DNA from: an uncultured bacterium
GTDB taxonomy: Bacteria > Cyanobacteriota > Vampirovibrionia > Gastranaerophilales > Gastranaerophilaceae
Length of the DNA: 64,000 nt
Assembly: GCA_949282215.1 (NCBI GenBank)
Contig: CASDPF010000007.1
Coordinates: 13,506-77,505 of the forward strand
Reading direction: 5' to 3'
This document shows positions 4,220 through 56,900 of this stretch, in pieces. Within the stretch, counting starts at the first letter, position 1; each line of letters opens with the position of its first letter. A program made the position numbers and the translations under genes. Below the pieces are notes generated by a model. The model had not been told where the DNA came from. It searched no databases and worked only from the letters and a program-made list of their open reading frames with translations.

Positions 4220-6811
4220 TTAACCTCTTTGCCCATTTTCCGGCAGTTTCAATCTTCCAAAGAAGAACTGAGACAGGAGTGTAACACCTAATAATGCACC
4301 CCCAATAGTTCCAAAGACTTTCAACCATTTACTTGTATTAAACTTTCTTGCTCCGACTTTTGAGAATAACTCATCAGGGGACATACCTAAAAGAAGAAAT
4401 TTGCGTTCTGATGTAGCTGTTGACCCTTTATTTTCAACAAAATGTTGAAGCTTAGCAAAATAATCAGTATCTCCGATTTCTTTGAATACAGCTTGTCTAT
4501 ATTCTTCTACACCTTTCATATTTGTATCACTGAATACGTTTTTCGTATCGTTATGAAGAGGCTCTTTGTATAAAGTATTCATAACAAGTCTAAAGAAATC
4601 CCAATCACTAGGAATATCAACTTTACCGATTTCAGGATTACTACCCAGATATTTATTTATTACTTTACCTTCTTTAATTTCAACATCACTTAAATCATCC
4701 ATGTTTGGATAAGGATTTCTAAGCATATAGAATTTTGTTTCAAAATCTACCATATGACGATCTACAGCAAGTTGTTTAGCGAATTCAATAACTTCTTCTT
4801 TTATTTCTCTAGGTCGATCCTTTAGACTTTCTATAGATGACGTAGAAACTTTACGATAGAAATTCAAACTGTTAATTAGCCCTTCAAAAGTACTCTTAAT
4901 ACCTAAGAATCTGTCAGATACAAAGCTTTTTTGAACTAATTTCAGACAGCAATCATCAGAATGAACTAAATGTCCATCTCTATTTATTTCAGGGCCTGTT
5001 AAATGCTGTGCAACATTTTCAAAACTAAAAGATTTACCATTTTGCTTAATATTTCTAAGCTCTTTAGAGGCACCATCAAAAGCATTATCTGTTTCTCTTA
5101 TATAATCATTCGGAACATCAGTAGCTTTTACAGTATCATTTAAACTATTTACTTTTTCACAAATAGCTTTTAATACTCGTCTATATTCTTCGTCATTTGA
5201 TGAAATTTTTTCCATTTTATCTCTGAGCAGAGCAGTCATTAACTCTCTATCCATACGGGTATTTTTAATTTCATCCGGAGTAAACTTAAAGATTTCTAAC
5301 AAACTGTCAGCAACATCATTCCAATAGTTTGCAAGACCAGTTTCCGGTGCTGATGCATATTTGATATATGCATATTTATCAAGCACATCAGTTTTAGCCT
5401 TCAAATCAGTCATAACTTTCGCTACATTTCTTATAACGGCTTGAGCATTTGCATCAAGTCTGGCTGCAGGAGTAGATGCTATTACTTTTGAAATAGGAGC
5501 TTCTTCAAACTTCGCACCAACCAAGCTATTCAAAATTATAGGCTTTTCTATCTCATTACGAATTGGAATAGACGGATTTCCATTGTTATATTCTTCAATA
5601 TTACGTCTTACAATTAAAGATATATCATCGAGCAAGTCTTGAGTTTCCAATTTAGTAAAATTTTTACCGGCATAAGCATTGCTTTCAAACAATTGTGTCA
5701 ATTGATCCATACTTGGGACAACTGCATCTATTATTTTTTGATTAAGTTCGGCATTCTGCAATGCTTTGCGTGAATTTTCGATAATTGATTGGGCTGAGGT
5801 TGATGAAAGTGTATATTTTTCAACACCATCTATTTTTAGATTTTTATGCAAATCAGCTTCCATTGCTTCAGTAGCTAATGCATCAAATCCATCCGTTAAA
5901 TTTCTTGCAATATTCTTTATTAAATCGTCCTTAAGAGGCTGATCTTTATTTAATTCAATAATACTTTCTATATTATTAATAATCTTATCACTTCGCATTT
6001 TATTAACAGATTCAGGGATATGATTTAATAAATAATCAGCTTTTTTCATCTGTAAATTATTTAAATACTTATTAACATAAGGCTCTGATACACTACATAT
6101 AAGAGCACTCATAACAGGAGTTGCAAACCCTGCTGTTAACATCCACAAAGTATTATTTTGGACTGCAATTTTTCTCATTTTTTCTTGAATAAAATCACGA
6201 CGATTTTCAATATTTCTAGGAACATTTAATCTATCACCGATTTTATTAATTTCTTTATCTGAATATAAATCCCAAGGTATAAATTGCGGATCCTGATAGA
6301 AATTTTTCTTACGGCCAAAACTATCTTCATATTTCTGAGAAATATTCACGCCGTGAATTAACTGAGCTGGCCATTGAATAGCGACCTTTGGCCATATAGC
6401 CATAGAAGCAAGAAATGAACCTAACCCTATAAATTCCATGGCTTTAGTCTTAGGTGTCTGTTTTAACGTTGCCAAAAATGCTGCCAAACTCAACCCCCCA
6501 ACCGTTAATCCCATATCATTGAGCTTACCCAATTGGTGGTCATTTGCTTTACCCGTATACCCGTCTTTTAAAGCTTTAATATCATAAGCAAAATCTTTAA
6601 CTAATACTGCCGGCATATCTGTAATTCTATTTTTTACAAGATGTCCGCGTCCCGGTAATGGTTTTATAAATGTACGATTTGCCAATTCTCTGTTTATATC
6701 AAAATTTGGTTTAGCTCTTTTTACATTAACTATTTCAACATCCTGAGAATTCGCTTTTGGTTGCGGATTGCGGTTATAATTTTGTATGTATGAATTTATC
6801 ATATTTACCAT
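4220..6811 (-). CDS. large membrane protein of unknown function (863 aa, C-terminal tail anchor)
   Basis: Long ORF 3 nt upstream of the GH13 gene. Hydrophobic segments lie near aa 95-150 and 215-240, and there is a terminal GTIGGALLGVTLLSQFFFG. The N-terminal module is homologous to the adjacent 341-aa protein. Confidence 0.6.
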   Translation of the reverse strand: MVNMINSYIQNYNRNPQPKANSQDVEIVNVKRAKPNFDINRELANRTFIKPLPGRGHLVKNRITDMPAVLVKDFAYDIKALKDGYTGKANDHQLGKLNDMGLTVGGLSLAAFLATLKQTPKTKAMEFIGLGSFLASMAIWPKVAIQWPAQLIHGVNISQKYEDSFGRKKNFYQDPQFIPWDLYSDKEINKIGDRLNVPRNIENRRDFIQEKMRKIAVQNNTLWMLTAGFATPVMSALICSVSEPYVNKYLNNLQMKKADYLLNHIPESVNKMRSDKIINNIESIIELNKDQPLKDDLIKNIARNLTDGFDALATEAMEADLHKNLKIDGVEKYTLSSTSAQSIIENSRKALQNAELNQKIIDAVVPSMDQLTQLFESNAYAGKNFTKLETQDLLDDISLIVRRNIEEYNNGNPSIPIRNEIEKPIILNSLVGAKFEEAPISKVIASTPAARLDANAQAVIRNVAKVMTDLKAKTDVLDKYAYIKYASAPETGLANYWNDVADSLLEIFKFTPDEIKNTRMDRELMTALLRDKMEKISSNDEEYRRVLKAICEKVNSLNDTVKATDVPNDYIRETDNAFDGASKELRNIKQNGKSFSFENVAQHLTGPEINRDGHLVHSDDCCLKLVQKSFVSDRFLGIKSTFEGLINSLNFYRKVSTSSIESLKDRPREIKEEVIEFAKQLAVDRHMVDFETKFYMLRNPYPNMDDLSDVEIKEGKVINKYLGSNPEIGKVDIPSDWDFFRLVMNTLYKEPLHNDTKNVFSDTNMKGVEEYRQAVFKEIGDTDYFAKLQHFVENKGSTATSERKFLLLGMSPDELFSKVGARKFNTSKWLKVFGTIGGALLGVTLLSQFFFGRLKLPENGQRG

Positions 6812-9737: not shown

Positions 9738-10708
9738 TATGCTACTCCTGCTTTTAATAAATCGTGAATATGTATAACCCCTACAGGTCTATTATTTTCA
9801 TCAACTACTGCCAAAGCTGTAATTGAATATTTTTCCATCAAATTCAAAGCACTTGCACCGTATGAATTAGCGGTAATTTTCTTTGGATTTGAAGTCATAA
9901 CATCTTTTATTACAAGATTAGATGTATTACCGAATTTTATAAGTGTTCTTCTGATATCACCATCAGTTAAAACTCCTGTCAATTCCTTATTGGAATTCAA
10001 AATCATAGCCATACCAAGCTTATGAGCCGTAATAATTTCGATAACTTTATTAAAGCTGTCATTTTCGGAAGCTACTGGCAAATCTTCAGTTTTCATCAAA
10101 TCAGAAACTCTATATAAGAATCCTTTTCCTAAAGCACCTGACGGATGGAAAATTAAGAAATCCTCTTCGGTAAATCCGCGTTTTTCAAGCAAACAAACTG
10201 CAAGAGCATCTCCCATTGCTAGCGTTGCAGTAGTAGAAGCAGTCGGAGCTTTATTCAAAGGACAAGCTTCTCTTTCAACTGAAATATCCAAAACGACATC
10301 AGATGCCTGAGCCAAAGTTGAACCCATTTTACCTGTCATACCAATCATTAATACACCAAATCTTTTAATAATCGGGAGTAAATTTAATAATTCCTGCGTC
10401 TCGCCGCTATTAGAAATCGCAATCACAACATCTTGCTTTGTGATAATTCCGCTATCACCGTGAGTACTTTCTGCAGGGTGAAGAAAATAAGAAGGAGTAC
10501 CTGTTGATGAAAGGGTTGCTGCAATTTTTTTACCGATTAATCCGGATTTACCCATGCCGGTTACAATAACACGACCTTTGCAATTATATAAAATTTCAAT
10601 TGCTTTATCAAAATTATCACCAATACTATCTTTCAAACGAAGAATTGATTTTGCTTCAATATCAAAAACTTCTTTTGCAAGTTCATTTATGCTAGACGCA
10701 GTCATCAT
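9737..10708 (-). CDS. kdsD: arabinose-5-phosphate isomerase (SIS + tandem CBS)
   Basis: RVIVTGMGKSG..ISNSGET SIS motifs plus a C-terminal CBS pair. 323 aa. Confidence 0.85.
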   Translation of the reverse strand: MMTASSINELAKEVFDIEAKSILRLKDSIGDNFDKAIEILYNCKGRVIVTGMGKSGLIGKKIAATLSSTGTPSYFLHPAESTHGDSGIITKQDVVIAISNSGETQELLNLLPIIKRFGVLMIGMTGKMGSTLAQASDVVLDISVEREACPLNKAPTASTTATLAMGDALAVCLLEKRGFTEEDFLIFHPSGALGKGFLYRVSDLMKTEDLPVASENDSFNKVIEIITAHKLGMAMILNSNKELTGVLTDGDIRRTLIKFGNTSNLVIKDVMTSNPKKITANSYGASALNLMEKYSITALAVVDENNRPVGVIHIHDLLKAGVA

Positions 10709-10838
10709 GATTTCACCTCTTATTTACTTTCCGGTACAATCGGCTCTCATATATTATGTACGTTTAACATTATACACCAAAAGTAGGAAATACTACCAAA
10801 ACATTAAATTTTCTTATCATTAAGACGAGTAAAAATTT

Positions 10839-11099
10839 ATGAAATTTATAAGTTTTGATAAAAAAAATTCAACAGAATTTCTCGAGCGAGTAGAAAAATA
10901 CATTGAAGAATCAGACTGCAGAGAAATGGGACTTGATGTATCAAGTCTAAATATTTTTGACGCATCGCGAATTCTCTTACTTACCTCAGCAATGCATTAT
11001 AATAAATATCCTGAAGGTAAATTAAAATGCAAAGTTCAAGCAAAAGAAATTACAAATCTGATAAGCGGATTTTCAACAAAAAATCTCGAAATAGTTTAG
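10839..11099 (+). CDS. hypothetical protein (86 aa)
   Basis: ORF only. No motif recognised. Confidence 0.35.
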   Translation: MKFISFDKKNSTEFLERVEKYIEESDCREMGLDVSSLNIFDASRILLLTSAMHYNKYPEGKLKCKVQAKEITNLISGFSTKNLEIV

Positions 11100-12412
11100 A
11101 ATAAATACGCAGCGAGAATTGCAAAAATAATTAAAGGGATATTAAAATGTAAAAAAGTAGGGATACAAGTATCTGCAATATGATTATGCTGTCCATCAGC
11201 ATTTAACCCAGCAGTCGGACCTAAAGTTGTATCAGAAGCAGGCGAACCGGCATCTCCAAGAGCTGCCGCTGATGCTAAAATAACAGTCGTCGCAGCGGGA
11301 GAAAAACCTAAATGCATACAAACAGGTATAAATAAAACAGCTAAAATCGGAATTGTACCAAAAGAAGTTCCAATTCCCATAGTAATAAACAAGCCCAGCA
11401 ACAGCATTAGACTTACAGCGAGCAACCTGCTATTCTGCATAAAAGGTAATATTGCATGAACAAGAGTATCAATACCGCCTGTAGCTTTCAAAACCATTGC
11501 AAACCCTGCAGCAACAAGCATTACAAAAGCTACATATCCCATTAGACCAATACCTTCATTGATAAGCTTATCCATTTTCCTGTGACTTACAGCCCCACCG
11601 CCAAAAACTATTCCTAAACCAACTAAAGCACCTAATGGTAAAGATTTTGTCAGTAATTGAACAATTAATGTAGCAAACGCTCCAATAAGAGTTATGTAAT
11701 GATTTTTATTCAATGCAAGGGCTTCTGCATCAATTTTTTCAAGCTCATTTTCTACCGGTGAAATTTCATTATATTCCCGAGGTTTTCTATAAGAAATAAA
11801 CACGGCAATCAAAAGCCCCACAAACATTCCAAGCCCTAATATCCAAGTTGATTTCCAAACATCATTTTTCAAAACGGTCATTCCGTTTATCGTCATATTC
11901 TCAGCAATCAAGCCTTGAAAAATAAGTCCAAAACCAGCAGGAATCATAATATATGGAGCTTTTAGACCAAATGCTAAACTACACGCTACTGCTCGTCTAT
12001 CAAGCTTTAATTTATTCATAACATGTAATAACGGCGGAATTAATATCGGAATAAAGGCAATATGCACAGGAATAAGGTTTTGCGAAAGCATTGCAATTCC
12101 TGTTAAAATTGAGAGTAACAGTATTTTTTTATCTTTAATTATAATTGCAATCTTTTTAGCAAGAATAGTAGCTAATCCTGTATGAGTCATAGCAGCGGCA
12201 AAAGTTCCAAGTAGAATATAGCTCAAAGCAGTTTCTGAATTACCACCCATGCCGGAAATAAAAGTATCCATAACCTTATCAACAGGCAACCCGCCGCATA
12301 ACCCTGCAACTATTGCTGAAATAATAATTGCAAGCAACACATTAATTCTGCACACGCAAAGTACGCATAATAAAATTACTGATATAACTACAGGATTAAA
12401 TAATAAAGTCAT
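11096..12412 (-). CDS. Na+/H+ antiporter-family (NhaC/YuiF-like) membrane transporter
   Basis: 438-aa polytopic protein. Its overall pattern resembles YuiF-type transporters. Family-level call only. Confidence 0.55.
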   Translation of the reverse strand: MTLLFNPVVISVILLCVLCVCRINVLLAIIISAIVAGLCGGLPVDKVMDTFISGMGGNSETALSYILLGTFAAAMTHTGLATILAKKIAIIIKDKKILLLSILTGIAMLSQNLIPVHIAFIPILIPPLLHVMNKLKLDRRAVACSLAFGLKAPYIMIPAGFGLIFQGLIAENMTINGMTVLKNDVWKSTWILGLGMFVGLLIAVFISYRKPREYNEISPVENELEKIDAEALALNKNHYITLIGAFATLIVQLLTKSLPLGALVGLGIVFGGGAVSHRKMDKLINEGIGLMGYVAFVMLVAAGFAMVLKATGGIDTLVHAILPFMQNSRLLAVSLMLLLGLFITMGIGTSFGTIPILAVLFIPVCMHLGFSPAATTVILASAAALGDAGSPASDTTLGPTAGLNADGQHNHIADTCIPTFLHFNIPLIIFAILAAYLF

Positions 12413-47281: not shown

Positions 47282-48436
47282 TTATTTACAACTTAATTCT
47301 GTAATAATAGTTTTTACGCCGTCCCCGATATTGAATTTATGACCGAGTTTATATAAAGAAGCCTCTAAAGCTCCTACAGAAGCAATTAAATCTCTATCGC
47401 AGACAAACCCAAGTGTTCCCATTCTGAAAATTTTATCTTTCAGTTGATTTTGTCCATTTGCAACAACAATGTCATAATCTTCTTTTAGAGTTTTTCTTAT
47501 ATCAGGCACCGAAATCCCATCAGGCGGGAGAATAGAAGTAATAGCATAGCTTGCATTTGCATCATTTTCTACAAGAAGTTTAAGATTAATTGCACGAAGA
47601 GCTTTTCTTAAAGCCACAGAATGTCTTCTATGACGCTCATTTACATTGTCAATTCCTTCATCTTTAATCATTTTTAGTGCTGTATTAAGCCCTACAATTA
47701 AATTAACAGCAGGCGTAAATGGAGTGGAATTTGATTGAACAGATTTTCTATGAGAAGCCCAATCAAAGTAAAAACTAGGATGCTTACACTGTTCATAAAG
47801 TTTCCAAGCTTTCTCATTAGCAGTGAGAAAAGCCAGACCGGGAGGAATCATAAAACCTTTTTGAGAACCTGAAATAAGTACATCAATCCCCCATTCATCA
47901 GGTTTACAAGGCATAGCACAAACACTTGTCACACCATCTACTACAGATACAGCACCATGTTCTTTTATAATTGAGCATAAAGTCTTAATATCATTTGCAG
48001 CACCGGTCGATGTTTCACTATGAGTGAGAGTAACTATTTTTATCTTTTTTTCTTTATCTTCATCAAGTCTTTGTTTTAGAATTTCCGGATTAATTACTTC
48101 ACCTGCAGGAACTTCAATTTTTTCAACAACAGCACCTCTTGATTCAGCTATTTTAGCCCAACGGTTTCCAAAATTTCCTATGACAAGGCAAAGAACTTTA
48201 TCGCCAACATTTATAAGGTTTTCCAAAGCGGCACACATAGCACCGGTTCCGCTTGATGTAAACATAAATACATCATTTTGAGTTTGAAAAACATATTTGA
48301 GATTAGCATAAACTTCTTCTAAAATAGAGGAGAATTCCGAACTTCTATGTCCTATCGGGTGTTTGGCAATTTCTAACATAACAGATTCCGGAACCGGTGT
48401 AGGACCAGGAATCATTAAAAAAGTTTTATCTTTCAT
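47282..48436 (-). CDS. class V aminotransferase (AGXT/SerC-type; likely the phosphoserine aminotransferase of the operon)
   Basis: MIPGPTP..SGSQKG (PLP lysine). Operon context with serA and serB. Confidence 0.75.
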   Translation of the reverse strand: MKDKTFLMIPGPTPVPESVMLEIAKHPIGHRSSEFSSILEEVYANLKYVFQTQNDVFMFTSSGTGAMCAALENLINVGDKVLCLVIGNFGNRWAKIAESRGAVVEKIEVPAGEVINPEILKQRLDEDKEKKIKIVTLTHSETSTGAANDIKTLCSIIKEHGAVSVVDGVTSVCAMPCKPDEWGIDVLISGSQKGFMIPPGLAFLTANEKAWKLYEQCKHPSFYFDWASHRKSVQSNSTPFTPAVNLIVGLNTALKMIKDEGIDNVNERHRRHSVALRKALRAINLKLLVENDANASYAITSILPPDGISVPDIRKTLKEDYDIVVANGQNQLKDKIFRMGTLGFVCDRDLIASVGALEASLYKLGHKFNIGDGVKTIITELSCK

Positions 48437-48594
48437 AAATATCTCCTCCTATATTAATTATATTGTTATATACATGTACCAATAAGGGATAATTTTTAAT
48501 AAAAGTATATATATTTTTGTAATAAAATATTAAAAGAATTTTTTTTTAAAGATTTATAATTTCATTTTAAGGGAGTTTATAATTAGTTAATAAA

Positions 48595-48655
48595 TATTTT
48601 AATAAATCAAGAATTTATTTAGTTATTAACAAAATTTTTATGTATAATAACCGTA
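48595..48655 (+). promoter_or_regulatory. promoter copy 1 of the PLD genes (TATAAT 48643..48648, 7 nt before ATG; inverted repeat AATAAAT-N5-ATTTATT at 48601..48619)
   Basis: About 62 nt, identical at all but 1 position (by eye) to 51086..51146. No SD between the -10 box and the ATG. Confidence 0.6.
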
Positions 48656-50011
48656 ATGAAAAAGCTGTTTTTATTGATAATATTAATTATATTTTTGGGG
48701 GAATTATCTGTTTCGGCATCTGATAAAAATAATATTGTATCAAAAAATATTAATTCAAATATTCATATATTCTTTGTTAATCCCGTAAATAAGTCAAAAC
48801 CTGCCCGAAGTGGAGATGGTGAGGCTATAAAAGCATTATTAAAATTGATAAATAATGCACAAGAAAGTATTGATTTTGCTATTTATGGAATAAGTAATGA
48901 AGATGAAATTTTTCAAGCATTAATAAACGCACAAAACAAAGGAGTAAACGTTAGGGGTATTGTTGATATGGATAATGAAAAGAAAAATCCATACAAAGAT
49001 ACTTATGATTTACAGAAACAATTAAAAAATATAAAAACAGATTATAAGCAATTAACAGACTTTAAATCTTCTAAGTCTGATTACGTGCAACATGTAACTT
49101 ATAATATAGGTGGGAAAATTATTGAGGCTTCGTTTGTAAATGAAGGTATTAAAGATTACAACGATAAAATAATGCATAATAAATATTTTATTATTGATAA
49201 AAAGATTGTCTGGACTGGATCAATGAATATCAGTAATACTTGTGCAAGTTATAATTCAAATTCAAGTGTTGCTATAAAATCTGAAGAACTTGCTAAAATT
49301 TATACAGAAGATTTTGAGCAAATGTTTTTAAAAAATAAACATCATAGCGAAAAACAAAATAATATAAATACAAAATATATAAATGTTGATAACAATACAA
49401 GAATTATTGCTTTTCTTTTACCGGAAGATAAAGAAACTTATAATATAATTAGCGGTTATATTAATAGAGCTCAAAAATATATTTATGTCCCGATGTTCTT
49501 TTTTACACACACAAAATATTCTCAAGACTTAATTAATGCACGTAACAGAGGCGTAAAAGTAAAAATTATATTAGACGCTACTTCCGCTAGAACTGGCTAC
49601 TCTAAACATGAAATTATGAGAATGGCTGGTATTCCTGTGAAAATTGAAAATTGGGGCGGAAAAATGCATGAAAAATCTCTAATCATTGATGATAAATATT
49701 TATTAATTGGCTCAATGAATTTTACAAGTGGTGCTCATTACCAAAATGATGAAAACAGTCTATTAATTGAAAATAAAGAAATAGCAATAAAATCAAGAAA
49801 AAGGTTTGAAAAATTATGGAAATCAATACCTAATAAGTGGCTATATTCTATTCCAAAACCCGAAGGAATAGATTCAAAATATTCTTGTTTTGATAATATT
49901 GACAATGATCATGATGGTCTTATTGATGCAGATGATCCAGATTGTGCATGTTTTTATAAGGAAAAACAAAATAAATATATTTATAATCAAACAGGCCCTA
50001 TAATTGATTAA
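48656..50011 (+). CDS. exported phospholipase D-superfamily (HKD) nuclease-like protein with C-terminal EF-hand-like loop
   Basis: Signal peptide MKKLFLLIILIIFLGELSVSA|S. Two HxK(x4)D..GSxN motifs (MHNKYFIIDKKIVWTGSMN, MHEKSLIIDDKYLLIGSMN). DNDHDGLIDADD loop. Confidence 0.85.
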   Translation: MKKLFLLIILIIFLGELSVSASDKNNIVSKNINSNIHIFFVNPVNKSKPARSGDGEAIKALLKLINNAQESIDFAIYGISNEDEIFQALINAQNKGVNVRGIVDMDNEKKNPYKDTYDLQKQLKNIKTDYKQLTDFKSSKSDYVQHVTYNIGGKIIEASFVNEGIKDYNDKIMHNKYFIIDKKIVWTGSMNISNTCASYNSNSSVAIKSEELAKIYTEDFEQMFLKNKHHSEKQNNINTKYINVDNNTRIIAFLLPEDKETYNIISGYINRAQKYIYVPMFFFTHTKYSQDLINARNRGVKVKIILDATSARTGYSKHEIMRMAGIPVKIENWGGKMHEKSLIIDDKYLLIGSMNFTSGAHYQNDENSLLIENKEIAIKSRKRFEKLWKSIPNKWLYSIPKPEGIDSKYSCFDNIDNDHDGLIDADDPDCACFYKEKQNKYIYNQTGPIID

Positions 50012-50777
50012 TTAATGAAAGACTTTTATGACTTTTAGTTTCTTTTTTGTTTTTTACATAATTTGCTCGAATTTTTTTTATATTTTCAGGTAATATCATA
50101 TCTTTTAGACACATATTAATATTCCACCCGTATATTTTAGCTTTTTTATCGTTAAATTTTTCATACTCCATAGCTTTAAAAAATAAATTTGGATGATTTT
50201 CATATAAATTCAGCCAATCATTTTGTGATTGATAAAAGCAAAAGTAACAGCCAGAACGCTTACGCCATTTATAATATTCTGGAAGATTTATTCCAACATT
50301 ATACAAAATTTTAAATACATCATCTCGATTTATACAAAATTCTTGAAACGGATATTTTACAATAACCTGCTTATTGCTATTACTTATTCCTCGGCCTAAT
50401 TCATCAGATCTTATGCCAACATAAGTATAAATAATTGTATTTTTATTTTTTCCTAAATATTTTGATTTAATATATTTCTCATAGACTCGAATTTTTAAAT
50501 CTACAGTACACCAACGATTTACAATAGAAGGTAAAAATTTCCTAACATCGTATAAATGCTCAAAAGATTTTTCCGGTTTAAGGACAGTAATTTTTTTGTT
50601 TAAAAATATTTCTATTTTGTTTAAATAATCATAAGTTTCAGGTATCTCTTGCTCTGTATCACAAAAAACGAGTTCTAAATTTTCAAAAATCTCAGGCATA
50701 TTTTCTTTCATAAAGAATGCAAGTGCAGTGGAATCCTTTCCACCAGAGAGTGATAAAATATGATATTCTTTTTCCAT
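49998..50777 (-). CDS. PAPS-reductase-family PP-loop ATPase
   Basis: LSLSGGKDS PP-loop, NRWCT, GIRSDE and RSGCYFCF motifs. Convergent with, and overlapping by 14 nt, the PLD gene. Confidence 0.8.
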   Translation of the reverse strand: MEKEYHILSLSGGKDSTALAFFMKENMPEIFENLELVFCDTEQEIPETYDYLNKIEIFLNKKITVLKPEKSFEHLYDVRKFLPSIVNRWCTVDLKIRVYEKYIKSKYLGKNKNTIIYTYVGIRSDELGRGISNSNKQVIVKYPFQEFCINRDDVFKILYNVGINLPEYYKWRKRSGCYFCFYQSQNDWLNLYENHPNLFFKAMEYEKFNDKKAKIYGWNINMCLKDMILPENIKKIRANYVKNKKETKSHKSLSLINQL

Positions 50778-50809
50778 TAGTTCTCCTTATAATACTTATA
50801 TCAAAAGCA

Positions 50810-50917
50810 GCCCTTCGCTACTTACGCCCCGCCTACGCGTGCCGTGCGTAGCTACGCTGTCTAACAGGCCACTCAAAAATTCCGAGTTTTTGTCAACGCG
50901 GAATTTTCTCGGGAAAC
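50810..50917. other. GC-rich ~108-nt insertion in leader copy 1, flanked by direct repeat AAAAGCA
   Basis: Absent from leader copy 2. AAAAGCA occurs at 50803..50809 and 50918..50924. Contains the palindrome GCGTAGCTACGC and a 9-bp stem AAAATTCCG/CGGAATTTT. Confidence 0.7.
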
Positions 50918-51075
50918 AAAAGCACAGCAAAGCATCTGCTTCACTGTGCTTAAAAACTTTCAGTTACTCCTTGCAAACACATAAATCATCTTTGGATTTC
51001 GCTCAACAAGAGGTGTATCACCATTTACATTATTACTGTAAAATGACAAATACGATTATTACTTAATTTTTTTTT
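50915..51075 (-). promoter_or_regulatory. conserved leader RNA copy 1 upstream of the PP-loop gene (terminator-like hairpin 50950..50921)
   Basis: About 90% identical by eye to 53720..53880. Minus strand reads AGCACAGUGAAGCAGAUGCUUUGCUGUGCU followed by UUUUGU. Confidence 0.6.
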
Positions 51076-51085
51076 AAGATTTTAC

Positions 51086-51146
51086 TATTTTAATAAATCA
51101 AGAATTTATTTAGTTATTAACATAATTTTTATGTATAATAACCGTA
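51086..51146 (+). promoter_or_regulatory. promoter copy 2 of the PLD genes (TATAAT 51134..51139, 7 nt before ATG)
   Basis: Near-identical to 48595..48655, including the AATAAAT-N5-ATTTATT inverted repeat. Confidence 0.6.
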
Positions 51147-51881
51147 ATGAAAAAGATTTTAGCAATTGCATTTATACTAACGACTTTGTCAATTTTACCT
51201 GTATCAGCTTCTGGCGAACATAAGGTAATTAAAATTATTGATGGGGATACTATATATGTTGACTTTAACGATAATGGAATTGCGGAACAAGATGAAAAAG
51301 TTCGAGTCAATGGAATTGATACGTTTGAAACTAAACTCAATGACGGACTAAATTGGCAAATGAAACTATATAACCTTACTCAAGATGAAGCTTTAGGACT
51401 TGGGTATTACGGAAAAGAGTTTGCTAAAAAAGAGCTGCTAAATAAACCAGTAAGAGCTGAATACACCGCAGAAGAAAAGTTTGATAAAAATAATCGACAT
51501 TTGATGTCTTTATACTATGATTGCGATAGACAAGGCAAATGCAAAAGTTACGAACAAGAAGTTTTGAAAGCAGGACTTGCAACAATTTATACAAAATCAA
51601 ACCTTGCAGATAAATTAAAGCCTTATGAGAATACAGATAAAATAAAACAAAATGCTAAAAGAACACATAAATTGAATCTTGTTGTATTAAATTATAAAAA
51701 CGGTAAATATCACAAAACTACTTGTGAATACGCTTTTTTAGCTAGTCAACAAGAGTTAATTAAAAAGACTTCAAAATATATTCCTTCATCTTGTTGTTTT
51801 AATATTCCAGAAAGAAAACAACATAATTATCCACATAAAGACATTAAATTAAATAGAGATATCTCTCTGTATTTTTGTTGA
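51147..51881 (+). CDS. exported staphylococcal-nuclease (SNase)-like domain protein; upstream part of a frameshifted SNase-PLD gene
   Basis: Signal peptide MKKILAIAFILTTLSILPVSA|S. IIDGDTIYVDF..KVRVNGIDTFE is the SNase motif. The ORF ends inside the frame-overlap window 51853..51881. Confidence 0.75.
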   Translation: MKKILAIAFILTTLSILPVSASGEHKVIKIIDGDTIYVDFNDNGIAEQDEKVRVNGIDTFETKLNDGLNWQMKLYNLTQDEALGLGYYGKEFAKKELLNKPVRAEYTAEEKFDKNNRHLMSLYYDCDRQGKCKSYEQEVLKAGLATIYTKSNLADKLKPYENTDKIKQNAKRTHKLNLVVLNYKNGKYHKTTCEYAFLASQQELIKKTSKYIPSSCCFNIPERKQHNYPHKDIKLNRDISLYFC

Positions 51882-51939
51882 CCCTACAAAAAATGAATTT
51901 CCTAAAAATGAATGCTCTTCTCCTAACTGTAAAGCATTA

Positions 51940-52914
51940 TTGAATATTATTCAAAGTGCAAATGATACAATAGATTTTGCTTTATATGGATTTAACGAGC
52001 AAGATGATATTTTAGATGCACTAATCCAAGCACAATACAGAGGAGTTAAAATCAGAGGAGTTGTTGATAAAGATGAAGCTGAGTCCTATTACGACACAAA
52101 AAAATTGTATGAATACTTTGAAAATATAAAAACAGATACAGAAACCTCAATAGCTAAAAAACAACAAGATGAAAAATTTACAAGAGCAAGACACGCTTTA
52201 ATGCATAATAAATTCTTTATTGTAGATGATAAGTACGTCTGGACTGGTTCTACAAACGTTTCATCAAGTTGTATGACACTAAATGCAAATTCCTCTGTAC
52301 TTATAAACTCATCAAAAATTGCAGAACTATATAAAAAAGAATTTGAACAAATGTATATTGGAGAGAGATTTCACGGTAATAAAGAACTAATTAAGAATAA
52401 TGAACATATTAAACTTAATAATGGTGAGACTGATGTATCTGTTTATTTTTCTCCAAAAGCAGAAGCTATCACAAACTATGTGAGACCAATAATACAAAGT
52501 GCAAAAACTTCCATTCATATATCGATGTTTTATTTAACGCATCGAAAAATAGTACAAGATTTAATAGATGCTAAAAATAGAGGAGTAGATGTAAAAATAA
52601 TATTAGATGGCGATTTTGTTGCTGATGGATATTCTCCACATGAAAAATTGCGTGCTGCTAATGTCCCAGTAAAAATAGAAAATTGGAAAGGTCGTATGCA
52701 TATGAAAAATGCAGTTATAGATGGTAAAATTTCTATTTTAGGTTCAACAAATTGGACTTCAACAGCAGAACTTGTGAATGACGAAAATATGCTAATCATA
52801 ATTGATGAAAAAATAGCTAAAGATGTTGAAAATAATTTCCAGAAATTATGGAAAACAATACCGGATAATTGGTTATTTTTAACACCTGAATTCAGAGTAA
52901 AACCTAAAAAATAA
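51940..52914 (+). CDS. phospholipase D-superfamily (HKD) nuclease-like domain; downstream part of the frameshifted SNase-PLD gene
   Basis: MHNKFFIVDDKYVWTGSTN and MHMKNAVIDGKISILGSTN HKD motifs. The frame is open from 51853 and there encodes CIFVDPTKNEF, which aligns with HIFFVNPVNKS of PLD1. Confidence 0.75.
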   Translation: MNIIQSANDTIDFALYGFNEQDDILDALIQAQYRGVKIRGVVDKDEAESYYDTKKLYEYFENIKTDTETSIAKKQQDEKFTRARHALMHNKFFIVDDKYVWTGSTNVSSSCMTLNANSSVLINSSKIAELYKKEFEQMYIGERFHGNKELIKNNEHIKLNNGETDVSVYFSPKAEAITNYVRPIIQSAKTSIHISMFYLTHRKIVQDLIDAKNRGVDVKIILDGDFVADGYSPHEKLRAANVPVKIENWKGRMHMKNAVIDGKISILGSTNWTSTAELVNDENMLIIIDEKIAKDVENNFQKLWKTIPDNWLFLTPEFRVKPKK

Positions 52915-53700
52915 CTAATATATTTCAAGTAAATTCTTAAAATGTGCTTCCTTATCTAGTTTTTTATCGGAATATTTTTTTCTAATAGCCTTTATATTTT
53001 CGGGTTTAATCATATCTTCAAGAGTTATATCTGAACGCCATCCAAAATGTCCCTTTTTGATATTTTTACAATTTTTATATTCATATTCCATTGCTTTTTT
53101 GTATAGTTCCGGGTGATGTTCATATAAATTTAACCATTCTAATTTTGATTGATAAAAACAGAAAAAACAACCTGAACGAGATTTCCATCTCATGTATTCA
53201 GGAAAACCAATTCCTGAGTTATTTAAAATATCATATATATCTTTCTTGATTAAACCATCCTCAACAAATAAAAACTTTTCTTTTATGTATGGTTTATTGC
53301 TTGTTGCCGTTTTAACTCTTTGAGGTTCATCTGCTCTAATACCTATATATAAGTTAATATACTTACAATTTTCATTATTTATAATACTTTTAAACATATT
53401 TTGAATAGTTTTTGTTTTTAATTCTACGGTACACCAACGATTTTGAGGTGTTGGTAAAATATTACGTGTTTCATAAATATGCTGAAAACTAACTGGAGGT
53501 TTTAATCTTGTAATTTTTTTGCCCAAAAATATTTCTAATTTATTCAAGTAATCATATAATTCTGGTAATTCAAGTTCTGTATCACAAAAATAGTATTGAA
53601 TTTCTTTATGAATATTAGGATAGTTCTCTTTTATATATAAAGCCAATGCTGCTGAATCTTTACCACCAGAGAGAGATAAAATATGATATTCTTTTTCCAT
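52915..53700 (-). CDS. PAPS-reductase-family PP-loop ATPase (paralog of 49998..50777)
   Basis: LSLSGGKDS, NRWCT, GIRADE and RSGCFFCF motifs. Its stop codon abuts the PLD2 stop codon. Confidence 0.8.
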   Translation of the reverse strand: MEKEYHILSLSGGKDSAALALYIKENYPNIHKEIQYYFCDTELELPELYDYLNKLEIFLGKKITRLKPPVSFQHIYETRNILPTPQNRWCTVELKTKTIQNMFKSIINNENCKYINLYIGIRADEPQRVKTATSNKPYIKEKFLFVEDGLIKKDIYDILNNSGIGFPEYMRWKSRSGCFFCFYQSKLEWLNLYEHHPELYKKAMEYEYKNCKNIKKGHFGWRSDITLEDMIKPENIKAIRKKYSDKKLDKEAHFKNLLEIY

Positions 53701-53880
53701 TCGTTCTCCTTATAATAAGCTACACAAAAGCACAGCAAAGCATCTGCTTCACTGTGCTAAAAACTTTCAGTTACTCCTTGCAAACACGAAAATCATCTAT
53801 GGATTAAAGCTTAACAAGAGGTGTATTACCTTTTACATTATTACTGCAAAATGACAAATATGACTATTACTTAATTTTTT
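53701..53880 (-). promoter_or_regulatory. conserved leader RNA copy 2 upstream of the PP-loop gene (terminator-like hairpin 53758..53729, U-run 53728..53723)
   Basis: Minus strand reads ..CACCUCUUGUU..UUGCAAGGAGUAACUGAAAG..AGCACAGUGAAGCA-GA-UGCUUUGCUGUGCU-UUUUGU, then 20 nt later AAGGAG-N6-ATG. Confidence 0.6.
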
Positions 53881-54031
53881 TTTAAGGTTTTACAATTTTC
53901 TCTTTTTACTAATTAAAAAAAAGAATTCCAATCTGCACCTTTAAAATTCCAAAAAGAGAATTTAGGAGATATTTTAATAAAAATTGGTAAAAATTAAGTT
54001 TAAAAATTTCTCTAAATAAAATTACATATCG

Positions 54032-54057
54032 AAAACCGCCCACACTGGGCGGTTTTT
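54032..54057. terminator. bidirectional intrinsic terminator downstream of tRNA-Ser
   Basis: AAAACCGCCC-acact-GGGCGGTTTTT. Confidence 0.75.
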
Positions 54058-54100
54058 CAAAATTATATCTTCACCAACTCCTAATCTTTATACTAAAAAA

Positions 54101-54189
54101 CGGAGTAATAGGGATTTGAACCCTAGATGCAGGATAACCCACATAACACCTTAGCAGGGTGCCGCCTTCAGCCACTCGGCCATTACTCC
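54101..54189 (-). tRNA. tRNA-Ser (anticodon GCU)
   Basis: Minus strand reads GGAGTAATGGCCGAGTGGCTGAAGGC..GCACC-CTGCTAA-GGTGT, then a long variable arm, then AGGGTTCAAATCCCTATTACTCCG. Confidence 0.85.
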
Positions 54190-54197
54190 ATTTCTGT

Positions 54198-54226
54198 TAT
54201 TTATTTGTCATGCTGAAACAGTTCAA
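54198..54226 (-). promoter_or_regulatory. candidate promoter TTGAAC-N17-TAAATA for tRNA-Ser
   Basis: Read on the minus strand. The -10 box ends about 8 nt before the tRNA 5' end. Confidence 0.4.
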
Positions 54227-54342
54227 CATCAACCATATTTCTAATATAACATAAATATTTTTTTTCGTAAACGGTTTTATTTTATTTTTTTCAAGCTATA
54301 ATATTATTATTAATATAAATGCGTTTTATGAAAGGTTTTTTT

Positions 54343-54858
54343 ATGATTGAAATGAAAGTTATGGGTATTGCACTTGATACAAGAACTGGCTCTCCTATCG
54401 TTGTTTTACACGATAAAGAAAACAGAAAAGCTCTGCCGATTTGGATTGGTTCTGCTGAAGCGAGTGCTATTATTAGAAAAATCGAAAATCTTGCCGTTGC
54501 AAGACCTATGACACACGATTTGATAATCAATATTATTGAAAAAACCGGTTATAATCTTGACAAAGTCGAAATTAATGATGTTGAAAAAGACACTTATTAC
54601 GCAACACTTTTCTTAAAAAATGATAAAGATGAAGTCCTTGAAATTGATTCAAGACCTTCTGATGCTATAGCTATTGCAATTCGTGTAGATGCTCCTATAT
54701 TTGTGACAGCTAACGTCATTTCTAACGGCTCTGTATCTACAGACTCTGCCAGAGACGAAGAAGAAGCTCAAGAATTCAAAAAATTTGTACAAAGCATTAA
54801 ACCGTCTGATTTTGCTAAATTAATGAAAGATAACGACCACCACGAAAGTGATCAATAA
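54343..54858 (+). CDS. bifunctional nuclease (BFN/DUF151) domain protein
   Basis: VMGIALDTRTGSPIVVLHD..ALPIWIGSAEASAI..RPMTHDL..RPSDAIAIA is the BFN pattern. Start at ATG 54343 preferred. Confidence 0.75.
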   Translation: MIEMKVMGIALDTRTGSPIVVLHDKENRKALPIWIGSAEASAIIRKIENLAVARPMTHDLIINIIEKTGYNLDKVEINDVEKDTYYATLFLKNDKDEVLEIDSRPSDAIAIAIRVDAPIFVTANVISNGSVSTDSARDEEEAQEFKKFVQSIKPSDFAKLMKDNDHHESDQ

Positions 54859-54864
54859 GCTATA

Positions 54865-55179
54865 CTAAATTTCATTTACCATCTTAAATATGAAAGTTAA
54901 CTTTTCAGCATTTATTTTGGATAATTTTGTATTGATTTTTTTTATCATATCTTCTTTTTTGATGAAATGTTCTTGATTGAATATGTCCTCATAAGAAACA
55001 TTTAAACTGTCTATAATCTTTTCTAATGTTTCAAACGACGGATAATTTCGCCCATTTTCAATTCTGCTTAAATGTTTTGGGTCAATTCCCACCATTTCAG
55101 CAAGCTTATCCTGCGTATACTTTCTATTTTCTCGGAATTCTCTTATCCTCATCCCGAGTAACTCTTTTTTTGTTGTCAT
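54865..55179 (-). CDS. XRE-family HTH transcriptional regulator
   Basis: LGMRIREFRENRKYTQDKLAEMVGIDPKHLSRIENG is a Cro/C1 HTH. Confidence 0.8.
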   Translation of the reverse strand: MTTKKELLGMRIREFRENRKYTQDKLAEMVGIDPKHLSRIENGRNYPSFETLEKIIDSLNVSYEDIFNQEHFIKKEDMIKKINTKLSKINAEKLTFIFKMVNEI

Positions 55180-55321
55180 AATATCTCTACCAAACTGTTT
55201 TTATATTATTTTATAAATCACTCAAGATAACCATACTTATGTAGACTATATTGACAAAAGGTGATATATAATACATAATAGTAATATAGAATGCGGATAT
55301 TTAATCAGAAAGGTGATATTT

Positions 55322-55990
55322 ATGAGAACAAAAGGATTTACCTTAGCGGAAGTGTTAATCACTCTTAGTATTATTGGTATAATTGCAGCAATTACACTAT
55401 CTTCACTTGTAAATAGTTACAAAAAACAACAAACTATTGCTAAATTAAAAAAAGTATATACAAACCTTAATCAAGCATTAAAACTCGCAGAATCAGAATA
55501 TGGACCTTATGAGTACTGGGAGATTCCTGCTATAAATTCTAATGTAAAAAGTTATTACAATAAATACTGGTACCCATATTTTAAGATACTTAAATCGTGT
55601 GAGAACTATTCTCAATGCAATTATACGTCAAATCAGCCTTGGTATTACCCAAATGGATCAAAATCAACTCTAACTTTTAATAGTCAAATTCTCAGAATTC
55701 CATTTTTATTAACTGATGGTACTCTTATTTCAATTTCTATCGCTGGAGGAGATATCTTAACTAAAGAATCTCAAATTTATATAGACTTAAATGGAAGTAA
55801 ATTGCCTAATAAATACGGTATTGACGTATTCGTATTGAATAGGGTAAAAGGTAAAGGAATATTGGCTTATGGTCAAGAACTCTCTATAGATGAGATAAAA
55901 GAAGAATGCTCCTATTCTGGCAAAGGAGAAACATGTGCTGCTAGAATTATTTATGACGGATGGCAAATAAAAAACGATTATCCCTGGTAA
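55322..55990 (+). CDS. prepilin-type N-terminal cleavage/methylation domain protein
   Basis: MRTKG|FTLAEVLITLSIIGIIAAITL. The C-terminal IIYDGWQIKNDYPW is shared with 12439..13206. Confidence 0.85.
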   Translation: MRTKGFTLAEVLITLSIIGIIAAITLSSLVNSYKKQQTIAKLKKVYTNLNQALKLAESEYGPYEYWEIPAINSNVKSYYNKYWYPYFKILKSCENYSQCNYTSNQPWYYPNGSKSTLTFNSQILRIPFLLTDGTLISISIAGGDILTKESQIYIDLNGSKLPNKYGIDVFVLNRVKGKGILAYGQELSIDEIKEECSYSGKGETCAARIIYDGWQIKNDYPW

Positions 55991-56097: not shown

Positions 56098-56295
56098 ATG
56101 CTTGATTCAGTAAAAGCTGTCCAAGCCCAACAGTTGTATCGGGTTCAACCTGTAGCATACAACGACGGCTCAAACGGCAGACAACCACAAAAAAATTCTG
56201 AAGTTAACTTCTTTGCTAACGGCGTACATAACCTAAATTACCCGTCAGTAAAAGGCAGTGAAACTTTAGGAAAATCATTAGATTTTCTTGCTTAA
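56098..56295 (+). CDS. small protein of unknown function (65 aa), paralog of 56387..56593
   Basis: AGAGG SD. Shares NLN[YH]P..G[ES]..LD[FL]LA-stop with its neighbour. Confidence 0.45.
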   Translation: MLDSVKAVQAQQLYRVQPVAYNDGSNGRQPQKNSEVNFFANGVHNLNYPSVKGSETLGKSLDFLA

Positions 56296-56386: not shown

Positions 56387-56593
56387 ATGACATTATCTGT
56401 CGGAAAGATTTTAGGAATAAATACAGGTTATAGAACCGGAGCAATCAGTAAACCTGAGTTTGCACTTGCAGACAATTTTATTCAACAATCTGTATCATCA
56501 AATCAGACATATAATTTAAATCACCCAGCTCAAGCAAATTCTACACCTTATGGTGAGTCTCCTAGAGCTAATCATTTAGATTTATTAGCGTAA
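56387..56593 (+). CDS. small protein of unknown function (68 aa), paralog of 56098..56295
   Basis: Shared C-terminal block YNLNHPAQ..GESPRANHLDLLA. Confidence 0.45.
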   Translation: MTLSVGKILGINTGYRTGAISKPEFALADNFIQQSVSSNQTYNLNHPAQANSTPYGESPRANHLDLLA

Positions 56594-56621
56594 ATAATGC
56601 AATCTCGAATATAAAAAAAAC

Positions 56622-56650
56622 AAAGCAGCAGACAAAAGTCTACTGCTTTT
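56622..56650. terminator. bidirectional intrinsic terminator
   Basis: AAAGCAGCAGAC-aaaa-GTCTACTGCTTT (one mismatch), flanked by A and T runs. Confidence 0.6.
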
Positions 56651-56654
56651 GTAT

Positions 56655-56900
56655 TTATTCAATAATTTCATATAAAGTAGAAGCTTCTTGAATACTTACA
56701 TTATTAGATGGAATACGTAATATTTTTGCTTTTACTTTTCTATTTGCATATTCAATCTCAATAATATCCCCTTCTTTTAGCTGTTTACCTGCTTTTGCGA
56801 GATTACCGTTTACAGAAATTCTACCCATATCTGAAACTTCATTAGCAACCGTTCGACGCTTTATTAATCTTGAAACTTTTAAAAATTTATCTAATCTCAT
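56655..56900 (-). CDS. S4-domain RNA-binding protein
   Basis: MRLDKFLKVSRLIKRRTVANE..V.VNG is an S4 motif. 81 aa. Confidence 0.75.
   Translation of the reverse strand: MRLDKFLKVSRLIKRRTVANEVSDMGRISVNGNLAKAGKQLKEGDIIEIEYANRKVKAKILRIPSNNVSIQEASTLYEIIE

Follow-up and report, generated by a model that had tools for sequence, protein, structure and literature searches.

What does an exported nuclease have to do with an enzyme that resembles the DNA sulfur-modification protein SspD? The question is raised by a 64,000-nt stretch of DNA from an uncultured member of the Gastranaerophilaceae (contig CASDPF010000007.1 of assembly GCA_949282215.1), which we will call the window. It contains two tandem units, and in the list of open reading frames (ORFs), each unit consists of a gene for a double-HKD nuclease on the plus strand (PLD) that is convergent with a gene for a PP-loop protein on the minus strand (PP). 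The comparisons described below indicate that PP and PLD form a genuine module, conserved across genomes. Its novelty lies in the obligate coupling of these genes in one bacterial order, in their arrangement in arrays of cassettes, and in a leader RNA in front of PP. As for the function, we think it possible, rather than probable, that the cell's own DNA is marked by the PP enzyme and that DNA without the mark is destroyed by the exported nuclease, while the leader tunes PP and convergent transcription couples the two genes antagonistically. The genes and the boundaries of the units are as follows.

48656-50011, plus strand: PLD1, 451 amino acids (ORF list)
49998-50777, minus strand: PP1, 259 amino acids (ORF list)
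51147-52914, plus strand: SNase-PLD2, with a signal peptide, an SNase domain and a double-HKD nuclease; split into two frames
52915-53700, minus strand: PP2, 261 amino acids (ORF list)
48537-48562, no strand: left unit boundary, T9/A9 tract motif AATTTTTTTTTAAAGATTT, repeat family D7
51065-51090, no strand: middle unit boundary, T9 tract, repeat family D7
53873-53898, no strand: right unit boundary, T9 tract, repeat family D7

PLD1 and PP1 overlap tail to tail by 14 nt, and the stop codons of PLD2 and PP2 are directly adjacent. The ORF list thus bears out the tandem convergent layout that had been proposed from the letters of the window alone (the original prediction). The identities first estimated by eye, about 55% for the PPs and about 45% for the PLDs, are 54% (PP1 versus PP2) and 40% (PLD1 versus the parts of PLD2) according to BLASTP. 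We scanned positions 48300-54400 for terminator-like sites. Each PP leader has a single one (minus strand; 50951-50920 and 53758-53729), these are the only two in the range, and there is none between the convergent genes, as had been claimed. A boundary motif was also said to mark every edge of the units, and the repeat finder recovered three copies, at 48537, 51065, and 53873. In the middle boundary, the T9 tract separates the divergent promoters of the PP1 leader and PLD2, and in an alignment with other genomes, the CTTAAAAAAANATTAA tract lies upstream of the promoter of the PP leader.

If PP and PLD belong together, they should be found together elsewhere, and a survey of gene neighborhoods found 36 modules, counting metagenome contigs. 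All 36 are convergent, with gaps from -60 to +250 nt, and all are from Gastranaerophilales-type genomes or gut metagenomes. On the PP side, a scan with one genome per species returned 80 loci. Those whose PP is at least 50% identical were all from Gastranaerophilales- or Vampirovibrionia-type metagenome-assembled genomes, and each of them with enough contig has a convergent PLD gene, with or without SNase, directly 3' of PP. About 60 PP loci from many phyla, at 40-48% identity, have no convergent PLD gene. On the PLD side, the closer relatives with source names are Gastranaerophilales proteins, and the distant secreted double-HKD homologs from other organisms (36-42% identity) have no PP neighbor. 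The two genes remain adjacent at many genomic positions, even where both proteins have diverged to roughly 45-50% identity.

The module often occurs in arrays, which range from one to four pairs: locus L007 has four pairs, L019 has three, and L010 has two. In L019, the third pair (9881-11890; also L108, 1102-3111) is decaying: the N-terminus of its PP is frameshifted, SGGKDS is lost, and its PLD is in two frames. A contig labelled as viral, L143, carries the module; the other viral matches were canonical ssp loci or phage PAPS reductases. We rejected the correlation between PP and PLD divergence across modules (Pearson 0.83, Spearman 0.19) as evidence for co-evolution beyond co-inheritance, because the Pearson correlation is driven by a few close pairs. 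In the flanks, no Pfam family appeared in more than 2 of 100 neighboring ORFs, so there is no recurrent third partner (aside from gene X, described below) and no defence-island signal in favour of the role in defence or as a DNA-uptake barrier that the original prediction had suggested. The pairing had been put forward as previously unrecognised, and we found no description of it in the PADLOC models, in the open-access text of comparative papers on Ssp, Dnd, and BREX, or in that of papers on Melainabacteria.

What kind of enzyme is PP? Both PP1 and PP2 match PAPS_reduct in Pfam, and both match PADLOC's SspD model nearly full length (E = 9.7e-84 for PP1 and 1.8e-85 for PP2, covering positions 2-244 of 277). 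PADLOC's DndC model matches both weakly, and its BrxP model matches PP1 (E = 1e-15) but gave no match for PP2. CysH-type models reach only E = 0.008, far under the cutoff. The difference between the SspD and CysH scores agrees with the proposal that the PP-loop proteins group with DNA-sulfur-modification enzymes. The motifs SGGKDS, RWCT, and SGC[YF]FC are visible in the translations (the last is SGCYFC in PP1), and SGGKDS and three cysteines are invariant across 64 PP sequences.

Structure searches were less specific. An AF2 (AlphaFold2) model of PP2, with a confidence score (pLDDT) of 89.9, has a generic PP-loop/PAPS-reductase fold, and Foldseek with this model returned generic PP-loop folds only: APS or PAPS reductases (TM-score around 0.5), LarE, and GMP synthetase. 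No closer solved relative was found by Foldseek. The sole sequence match of PP2 in PDB is to chain C of 21fy ('PptA', 270 amino acids; E = 3.5e-6, residues 40-205); we did not find the identity of 'PptA' in the searchable literature.

The PP family has more than 7,500 relatives. A neighbor-joining tree places 34 PLD-linked PPs apart from 60 canonical SspDs, and all 200 resamplings recovered this split. The median identity is 54% inside the PLD-linked clade and 55% among SspDs from many phyla. An ortholog of PP2, P0001 of locus L006, is 97% identical, and the nearest non-melainabacterial relatives of the PPs are 40-48% identical; two of those loci, which we inspected, are canonical sspA-B-C-D. 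Judging from these comparisons, PP belongs to the SspD family, broadly defined, as a separate clade.

The ancestry of the module can be read from an additional gene. In ten contigs (L006, L016, L019, L020, L023, L024, L027, L098, L127, and L143), a gene that we call gene X, encoding 417-469 amino acids, lies directly upstream of PP and in the same direction. Gene X has no match in Pfam. It matches SspC models at positions ~720-1054 of 1054 (E ~ 1e-40), without the ATPase part, and its first ~100 residues look like a winged helix. The window's two units do not have gene X. Because gene X carries the C-terminal domain of SspC and is upstream of PP, which is the canonical spot upstream of sspD, the module appears to be an sspC-sspD operon in reduced form, to which an exported nuclease was added. 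We conclude from the sequences that the cassette descends from such an operon.

Despite this ancestry, the module is not an Ssp system: SspB, the SspC ATPase, and SspE or SspFGH were not found. Specifically, tblastn with two SspB proteins gave no match in the window or in any melainabacterial locus; SspA, SspB, and full-length SspC were not found in the window or in the 20-kb flanks of related loci; and neither SspE nor SspFGH is near the module. PP shares SGGKDS and the cysteine motifs with the SspD of SspABCD, but its partner is a convergent exported HKD/SNase nuclease, and the PP clade has a structured leader RNA of its own. Other defence systems are matched at the level of domains only. 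These include BREX type 4, through the weak match of PP1 to BrxP, and, through the PLDs, DISARM DrmC, MkoC, and DpdK (E = 1e-27 and weaker); the other defining genes of these systems are not present. Checking PADLOC, as the original prediction proposed, therefore gave a mixed outcome: the models match single components (SspD and a DrmC-like PLD), and by these component models there is no complete catalogued system.

The partner is better described as a nuclease than as a lipid enzyme. PLDc_2 is found twice in each PLD (E = 3.8e-51 for PLD1 and 5e-58 for PLD2), and the N-terminal part of the unit 2 protein has an SNase domain (Pfam, E = 2.3e-7; NCBIfam EcnA, E = 1.6e-12). Together with PAPS_reduct in PP, these are the families that had been expected. 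The two HxK(x4)D motifs that had been reported for each protein can be seen in the translations, as MHNKYFIID / MHEKSLIID and MHNKFFIVD / MHMKNAVID, and by motif reading the PLD2 translation has the Ca-binding and catalytic pattern of SNase (D..D-T-x-E / R), as DGDT and RVNGIDTFE. Named relatives of the PLDs include NucT (NCBIfam, E = 3.7e-27; PDB 6ehi) and DrmC, and the PDB sequence matches are to Zucchini, NucT, and Nuc. Models of cardiolipin synthase give just 43-48 bits, versus cutoffs of 280-290. The PLDs are predicted to be Nuc/NucT/Zucchini-type nucleases rather than cardiolipin synthases. Neither of the findings that the original prediction had named as fatal to it was made: the pair is not confined to this duplicated segment, and its proteins do not group with ordinary CysH-type enzymes and cardiolipin synthases.

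Both PLDs start with a hydrophobic, signal-peptide-like segment that ends in VSA|S, as read by eye. A signal peptide and 4-14 cysteines are present in nearly all PLD homologs (at least 20), which fits the Sec signal peptides that had been proposed and makes export likely. PLD1 also has an acidic, cysteine-rich double-disulfide repeat (acid_disulf_rpt) at its C-terminus. By its sequence, PLD is an ordinary member of a secreted double-HKD family. Nuc (from pKM101) and NucT (from H. pylori) are exported too. Along with Zucchini they are the best matches among solved structures and in NCBIfam, with the HKD motifs intact. Unlike those proteins, the module's PLDs fuse two HKD domains, often with an N-terminal SNase and a C-terminal acidic cysteine-rich repeat, and their gene is tied to an SspD-like gene.

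NucT of H. pylori processes extracellular DNA for transformation or as a nutrient. This suggests an explanation in terms of DNA uptake or scavenging: the nuclease would process extracellular DNA, and single strands or nucleotides taken up by the cell would be the substrate of the SspD-like enzyme. The pair would then serve metabolism or competence and would not be a barrier. Besides the rank of NucT among the best named relatives of PLD, there is a prepilin-type gene 1.4 kb downstream in the window, and the leader and terminator of PP could be a metabolite-sensing switch. Also, Ssp enzymes modify single strands (PMC12914056). However, no competence genes recur beside the module in other genomes, and multi-copy arrays of pairs that are 40-55% identical would be unexpected for a housekeeping route. 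To our knowledge, there is no salvage enzyme in the SspD clade. We consider this explanation quite unlikely.

SNase-PLD2 had been described as a single gene at 51147-52914, and this did not hold up. Frame 1 stops at 51881, and the gene is divided between one ORF at 51147-51881 and a second at 51862-52914 in a different frame. Over 2,479 nt the window is 95% identical to locus L006, which encodes an intact SNase-PLD fusion of 589 amino acids, and where the window has a run of five Ts (51873-51877), L006 has four. PLD2 is therefore split by a +1 frameshift, which is either a recent pseudogene mutation or a homopolymer sequencing error.

Upstream of PP, the module carries a leader that is conserved across genomes. 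The parts of the window's two leaders, all on the minus strand, are as follows.

50778-51034, minus strand: PP1 leader (covariance-model match, 134.6 bits, E = 1e-23)
51034-51029, minus strand: -10-like AATAAT of the PP1 leader (sequence)
51026-50913, minus strand: structured core of the PP1 leader (covariance model)
50951-50920, minus strand: intrinsic terminator of the PP1 leader (terminator scan)
53701-53842, minus strand: PP2 leader (covariance-model match, 132.9 bits)
53842-53837, minus strand: AATAAT of the promoter-like TAGTCA-18-AATAAT of the PP2 leader (terminator/promoter scan)
53834-53721, minus strand: structured core of the PP2 leader (covariance model)
53758-53729, minus strand: intrinsic terminator of the PP2 leader (terminator scan)

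Both leaders end in a ribosome-binding site (RBS). The repeat finder aligned the blocks 50916-51091 and 53724-53899 at 91-98% identity, in line with the earlier estimate of about 90%, which overlooked that the PP1 leader carries a GC-rich insert of ~117 nt (~50800-50915) between the terminator and the RBS. The PP2 leader lacks it. Elsewhere we found this insert only in L011 and L013 (89% identical). It has no match in Rfam, its predicted fold is -43.6 kcal/mol, and it includes a second hairpin followed by a T-run.

The window-type leader is also found upstream of PP in other genomes and in human-gut metagenome contigs. Our covariance model found 32 copies, each of them 5' of PP or of gene X and PP. 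Across 17 modules, the leader has a median nucleotide identity of 90% (minimum 78%), whereas the medians of the PP and PLD genes are 68% and 64%, respectively. The original prediction was that the regulatory DNA is better conserved than the genes, and across genomes this is correct for the PP leader but not, as discussed below, for the PLD promoter.

The conserved part of the leader begins at the -10-like AATAAT, and the RNA is predicted to start a few bases further on. The RNA folds into a small hairpin (P0) and a long irregular one (P1, which bears an apical P2 and a loop of 7 nt); a conserved linker then leads to the intrinsic terminator, just before the RBS. In 22 distinct copies, 98.6% of cells are paired, versus 40-61% in slid controls. 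Compensatory changes were seen at two pairs of the counted alignment. Divergent leaders upstream of gene X (L020 and L023) fold on their own into the same architecture. In these, U-A in P1 gives way to U.G and on to C-G, and by our reading P2 changes from AAUC/GAUU to AAUU/AAUU or UAUC/GAUA. (P2 was out of register in the MAFFT alignment, and its covariation comes from per-sequence folds and reading, not from counts of pairs.) Operons of the geneX type have another terminator after the 5' domain, and the RBS comes next.

Neither of the window's leaders matches Rfam (at E ≤ 1), and at the gathering score there is no Rfam match anywhere in the window. The L023 leader gave only a chance-level match to TD-1. 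In all 32 copies, a structured 5' domain is followed by a terminator upstream of the gene, which is the layout of an attenuator or a riboswitch. We propose that the PP leader is a candidate for a new cis-regulatory RNA of one of these types. In scans with a DNA pattern, 29 of the 44 stretches from metagenomes were chance matches without the rest of the leader, and all eight from viral contigs were chance matches too. There is also a weak match to the covariance model at 56614-56726 on the minus strand of the window (21.4 bits, E = 0.21), which is probably due to chance. A nine-codon ORF in the leader (MIFVFARSN) was considered as a leader peptide and rejected: it has no RBS, and in relatives it has early stops (ATG ATT TGA in L019 and ATG ATT TTT TAA in L010).

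The promoters of the two PLD genes are organized differently.

48595-48655, plus strand: PLD1 promoter, with TATAAT at 48643-48648
51086-51146, plus strand: PLD2 promoter, with TATAAT at 51134-51139

In most PLD genes of the 36 modules, exactly 7 nt separate TATAAT from the ATG, and a Shine-Dalgarno sequence is missing. Because of this spacing and this lack, the PLD mRNA is probably leaderless. The two promoters had been described as near-identical, and within the window they are: the repeat that includes them (48595-48669 and 51086-51160) is 75 nt long and 96% identical. But upstream of the -10 box this similarity is a property of the one genome and does not reach deep: what other genomes share is the -10 box and its distance from the ATG, and the rest of the 61-nt repeat is genome-specific. 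Recombination or homogenisation in this genome accounts for the identity of the two promoters. The window-specific part contains a 7-nt inverted repeat (AATAAAT-5 nt-ATTTATT), which could be an operator.

Why are the genes so much more variable than what surrounds them? A comparison of the window with L006 suggests exchange of segments. The homology breaks off at two points, the start codon of PP2 (53696) and the place where the signal peptide of PLD2 ends (51219), and the flanks differ. The HKD part has a synonymous divergence of 0.065, PP2 one of 0.24, and the SNase part one of 0.57, which implies that segments of the cassette differ in their history. In loci with the same leader, promoter core, signal peptide, and SNase as the window (71-83% identity), the PLD domains are only 38-47% identical to that of PLD2. 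For instance, L022 and the window are 83% identical in SNase and 39% in PLD. This pattern indicates that recombination, with breakpoints at the start codon of PP and where the signal peptide of PLD ends, swaps the variable interior between conserved flanks. Old, divergent PLD-PP interiors would be exchanged between flanking recombination arms, and the regulatory DNA would be more conserved than the genes because the leader is constrained as an RNA and because the flanks serve as these arms.

In L001-L004, a 91-codon ORF (5722-5997) lies directly upstream of a full PP2-like gene, and over its first 63 residues it shares 90% identity with the N-terminus of PP1. It looks like a remnant of recombination. 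The module of L001-L004 adjoins type I-C cas3-cas5-cas8c genes.

The genes themselves are kept by purifying selection, as the ratio of nonsynonymous to synonymous divergence (dN/dS) is 0.05-0.15 over all parts. It is 0.12 for PLD1 and 0.07 for PP1, both compared to L019 (whose ortholog of PLD1 is 87% identical), and 0.08 for PP2 compared to P0001/L006. These values bear on the explanation that PP and PLD have no direct functional link: owing to their shared flanks and their convergent, overlapping transcription units, the genes would move together as one recombination cassette, and PP would be a remnant of a degraded Ssp system. The absence of SspB and the SspC ATPase from the module would fit, as would the independent existence of each partner family elsewhere and the frequency of pseudogenised copies. 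But purifying selection acts on both genes, their adjacency outlasts divergence to about 45-50% identity at many genomic positions, and the PP gene has an elaborate conserved regulatory leader. We consider the lack of any link to be highly improbable.

A conserved promoter, signal peptide, and SNase around a variable PLD and PP also resembles polymorphic toxin-immunity loci. This brings us to the main rival explanation, a secreted nuclease with self-protection of the producer: PP would shield the cytoplasm from the nuclease until its export, by binding or modifying the nuclease or by modifying its substrate, and the pairs would diversify together. Inhibitors of nucleases have precedents in barnase-barstar and in NucA-NuiA of Anabaena. 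As in those systems and in toxin-immunity arrays, an exported nuclease lies beside a cytoplasmic partner (strictly adjacent in 36 of 36 modules), and there are arrays of divergent pairs with decaying copies, such as PLD2 here and the third pair of L019. In contrast to those systems, the partner is a conserved enzyme, the genes are convergent, and the nuclease has no delivery or translocation domain. PP keeps all its catalytic motifs across the 64 sequences and is 40-48% identical to SspD, and an inhibitor that acts by binding needs neither. Furthermore, the same family of secreted PLDs stands alone in other phyla, so there is no intrinsic need for an immunity protein, and gene X, with its putative winged helix and its SspC C-terminal domain, suits a complex of nucleic-acid enzymes better. 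We doubt that self-protection is the answer, but uptake or scavenging and the lack of a link are less likely.

We return to the idea that PP marks the cell's own DNA and PLD destroys unmarked DNA, which, given the homology, is the most parsimonious reading. By homology with SspD, DndC, and TdpC, the PP enzyme would adenylate and thiolate the backbone of the cell's own nucleic acids. The modification would be DNA phosphorothioation, for which a housekeeping cysteine desulfurase, perhaps an IscS encoded elsewhere in the genome, would supply the sulfur. The exported nuclease would degrade unmarked DNA in the periplasm or outside the cell, so that the pair would be like a restriction-modification system whose restriction arm acts before DNA enters the cytoplasm. 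The leader would be an attenuator or a riboswitch-like switch that sets the amount of the PP enzyme, and convergent transcription without a terminator would couple the two genes antagonistically.

That a single PP-loop protein might suffice has a parallel in TdpABC. According to the passage of PMC12914056 that cites An et al. 2025, tdpC alone is enough for phosphorothioate synthesis, via an adenylated DNA intermediate. As Tdp is described there (we compared the systems by this description only), one PP-loop writer lies beside a restriction partner that contains a nuclease, as we propose for our module. The Tdp restriction proteins are cytoplasmic, and Tdp is found in extremophiles.

Several observations weigh against the marking of self DNA. 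The biochemical activities of both proteins are predictions, and because the proteins occupy separate compartments, they could be linked functionally only in an indirect way. Canonical SspD needs SspB and the SspC ATPase, and neither was found in the window or in the flanks of related loci. Known phosphorothioate marks are sparse, and it is hard to picture how they would shield DNA from a non-specific nuclease. The 100 flanking ORFs show no enrichment of defence functions, and the PLD2 of this window is frameshifted. The support for the leader from covariation is modest, because the copies are so similar. A more elaborate version of the idea is an inside-out, minimal restriction-modification system, with a writer derived from Ssp, a cognate secreted or periplasmic nuclease, swappable specificity cassettes, and a new riboswitch-like control; we regard this as speculative and rather unlikely.

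The surroundings of the array in the window are varied. The G+C content is 27-29% in the array, 31-36% in the first 48 kb of the window, and 28-32% in the downstream flank. To the left, a class-V aminotransferase gene (47282-48436) that adjoins serA lies beside the array and, by our reading of its motifs, looks like a serine-pathway enzyme. To the right, at a distance of ~200 nt, is a tRNA-Ser(GCU) gene (54100-54190, minus strand), with a strong hairpin, AAAACCGCCCACACTGGGCGGTTTT, at 54036-54056 between it and the array. Insertion of the array at a tRNA site is possible. Further to the right are a gene with a bifunctional-nuclease domain (BFN_dom) and a convergent gene of the XRE type with a helix-turn-helix (54319-55179 for both), followed by the prepilin-type gene (55313-55990). 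Downstream of the latter are two adjacent small ORFs on the plus strand, 56098-56295 (65 amino acids) and 56387-56593 (68 amino acids), with no match in Pfam. They have similar C-terminal tails (..SLDFLA and ..HLDLLA) and may be paralogous small proteins.

If the module is only a nuclease with self-protection, it would still be unusual, as the protector would be of the enzyme type. Whatever the proteins do, the leader is a candidate for a new cis-regulatory RNA, and its clear genetic context makes the sensed signal directly testable. If PP does mark nucleic acid with neither SspB nor the SspC ATPase, it would be the second minimal writer of the phosphorothioate type, after TdpC, and the first in a lineage from the human gut. 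The module would then discriminate self from non-self at the cell envelope, which would bear on gene flow, on the turnover of extracellular DNA, and possibly on the interactions of gut Melainabacteria with their hosts.

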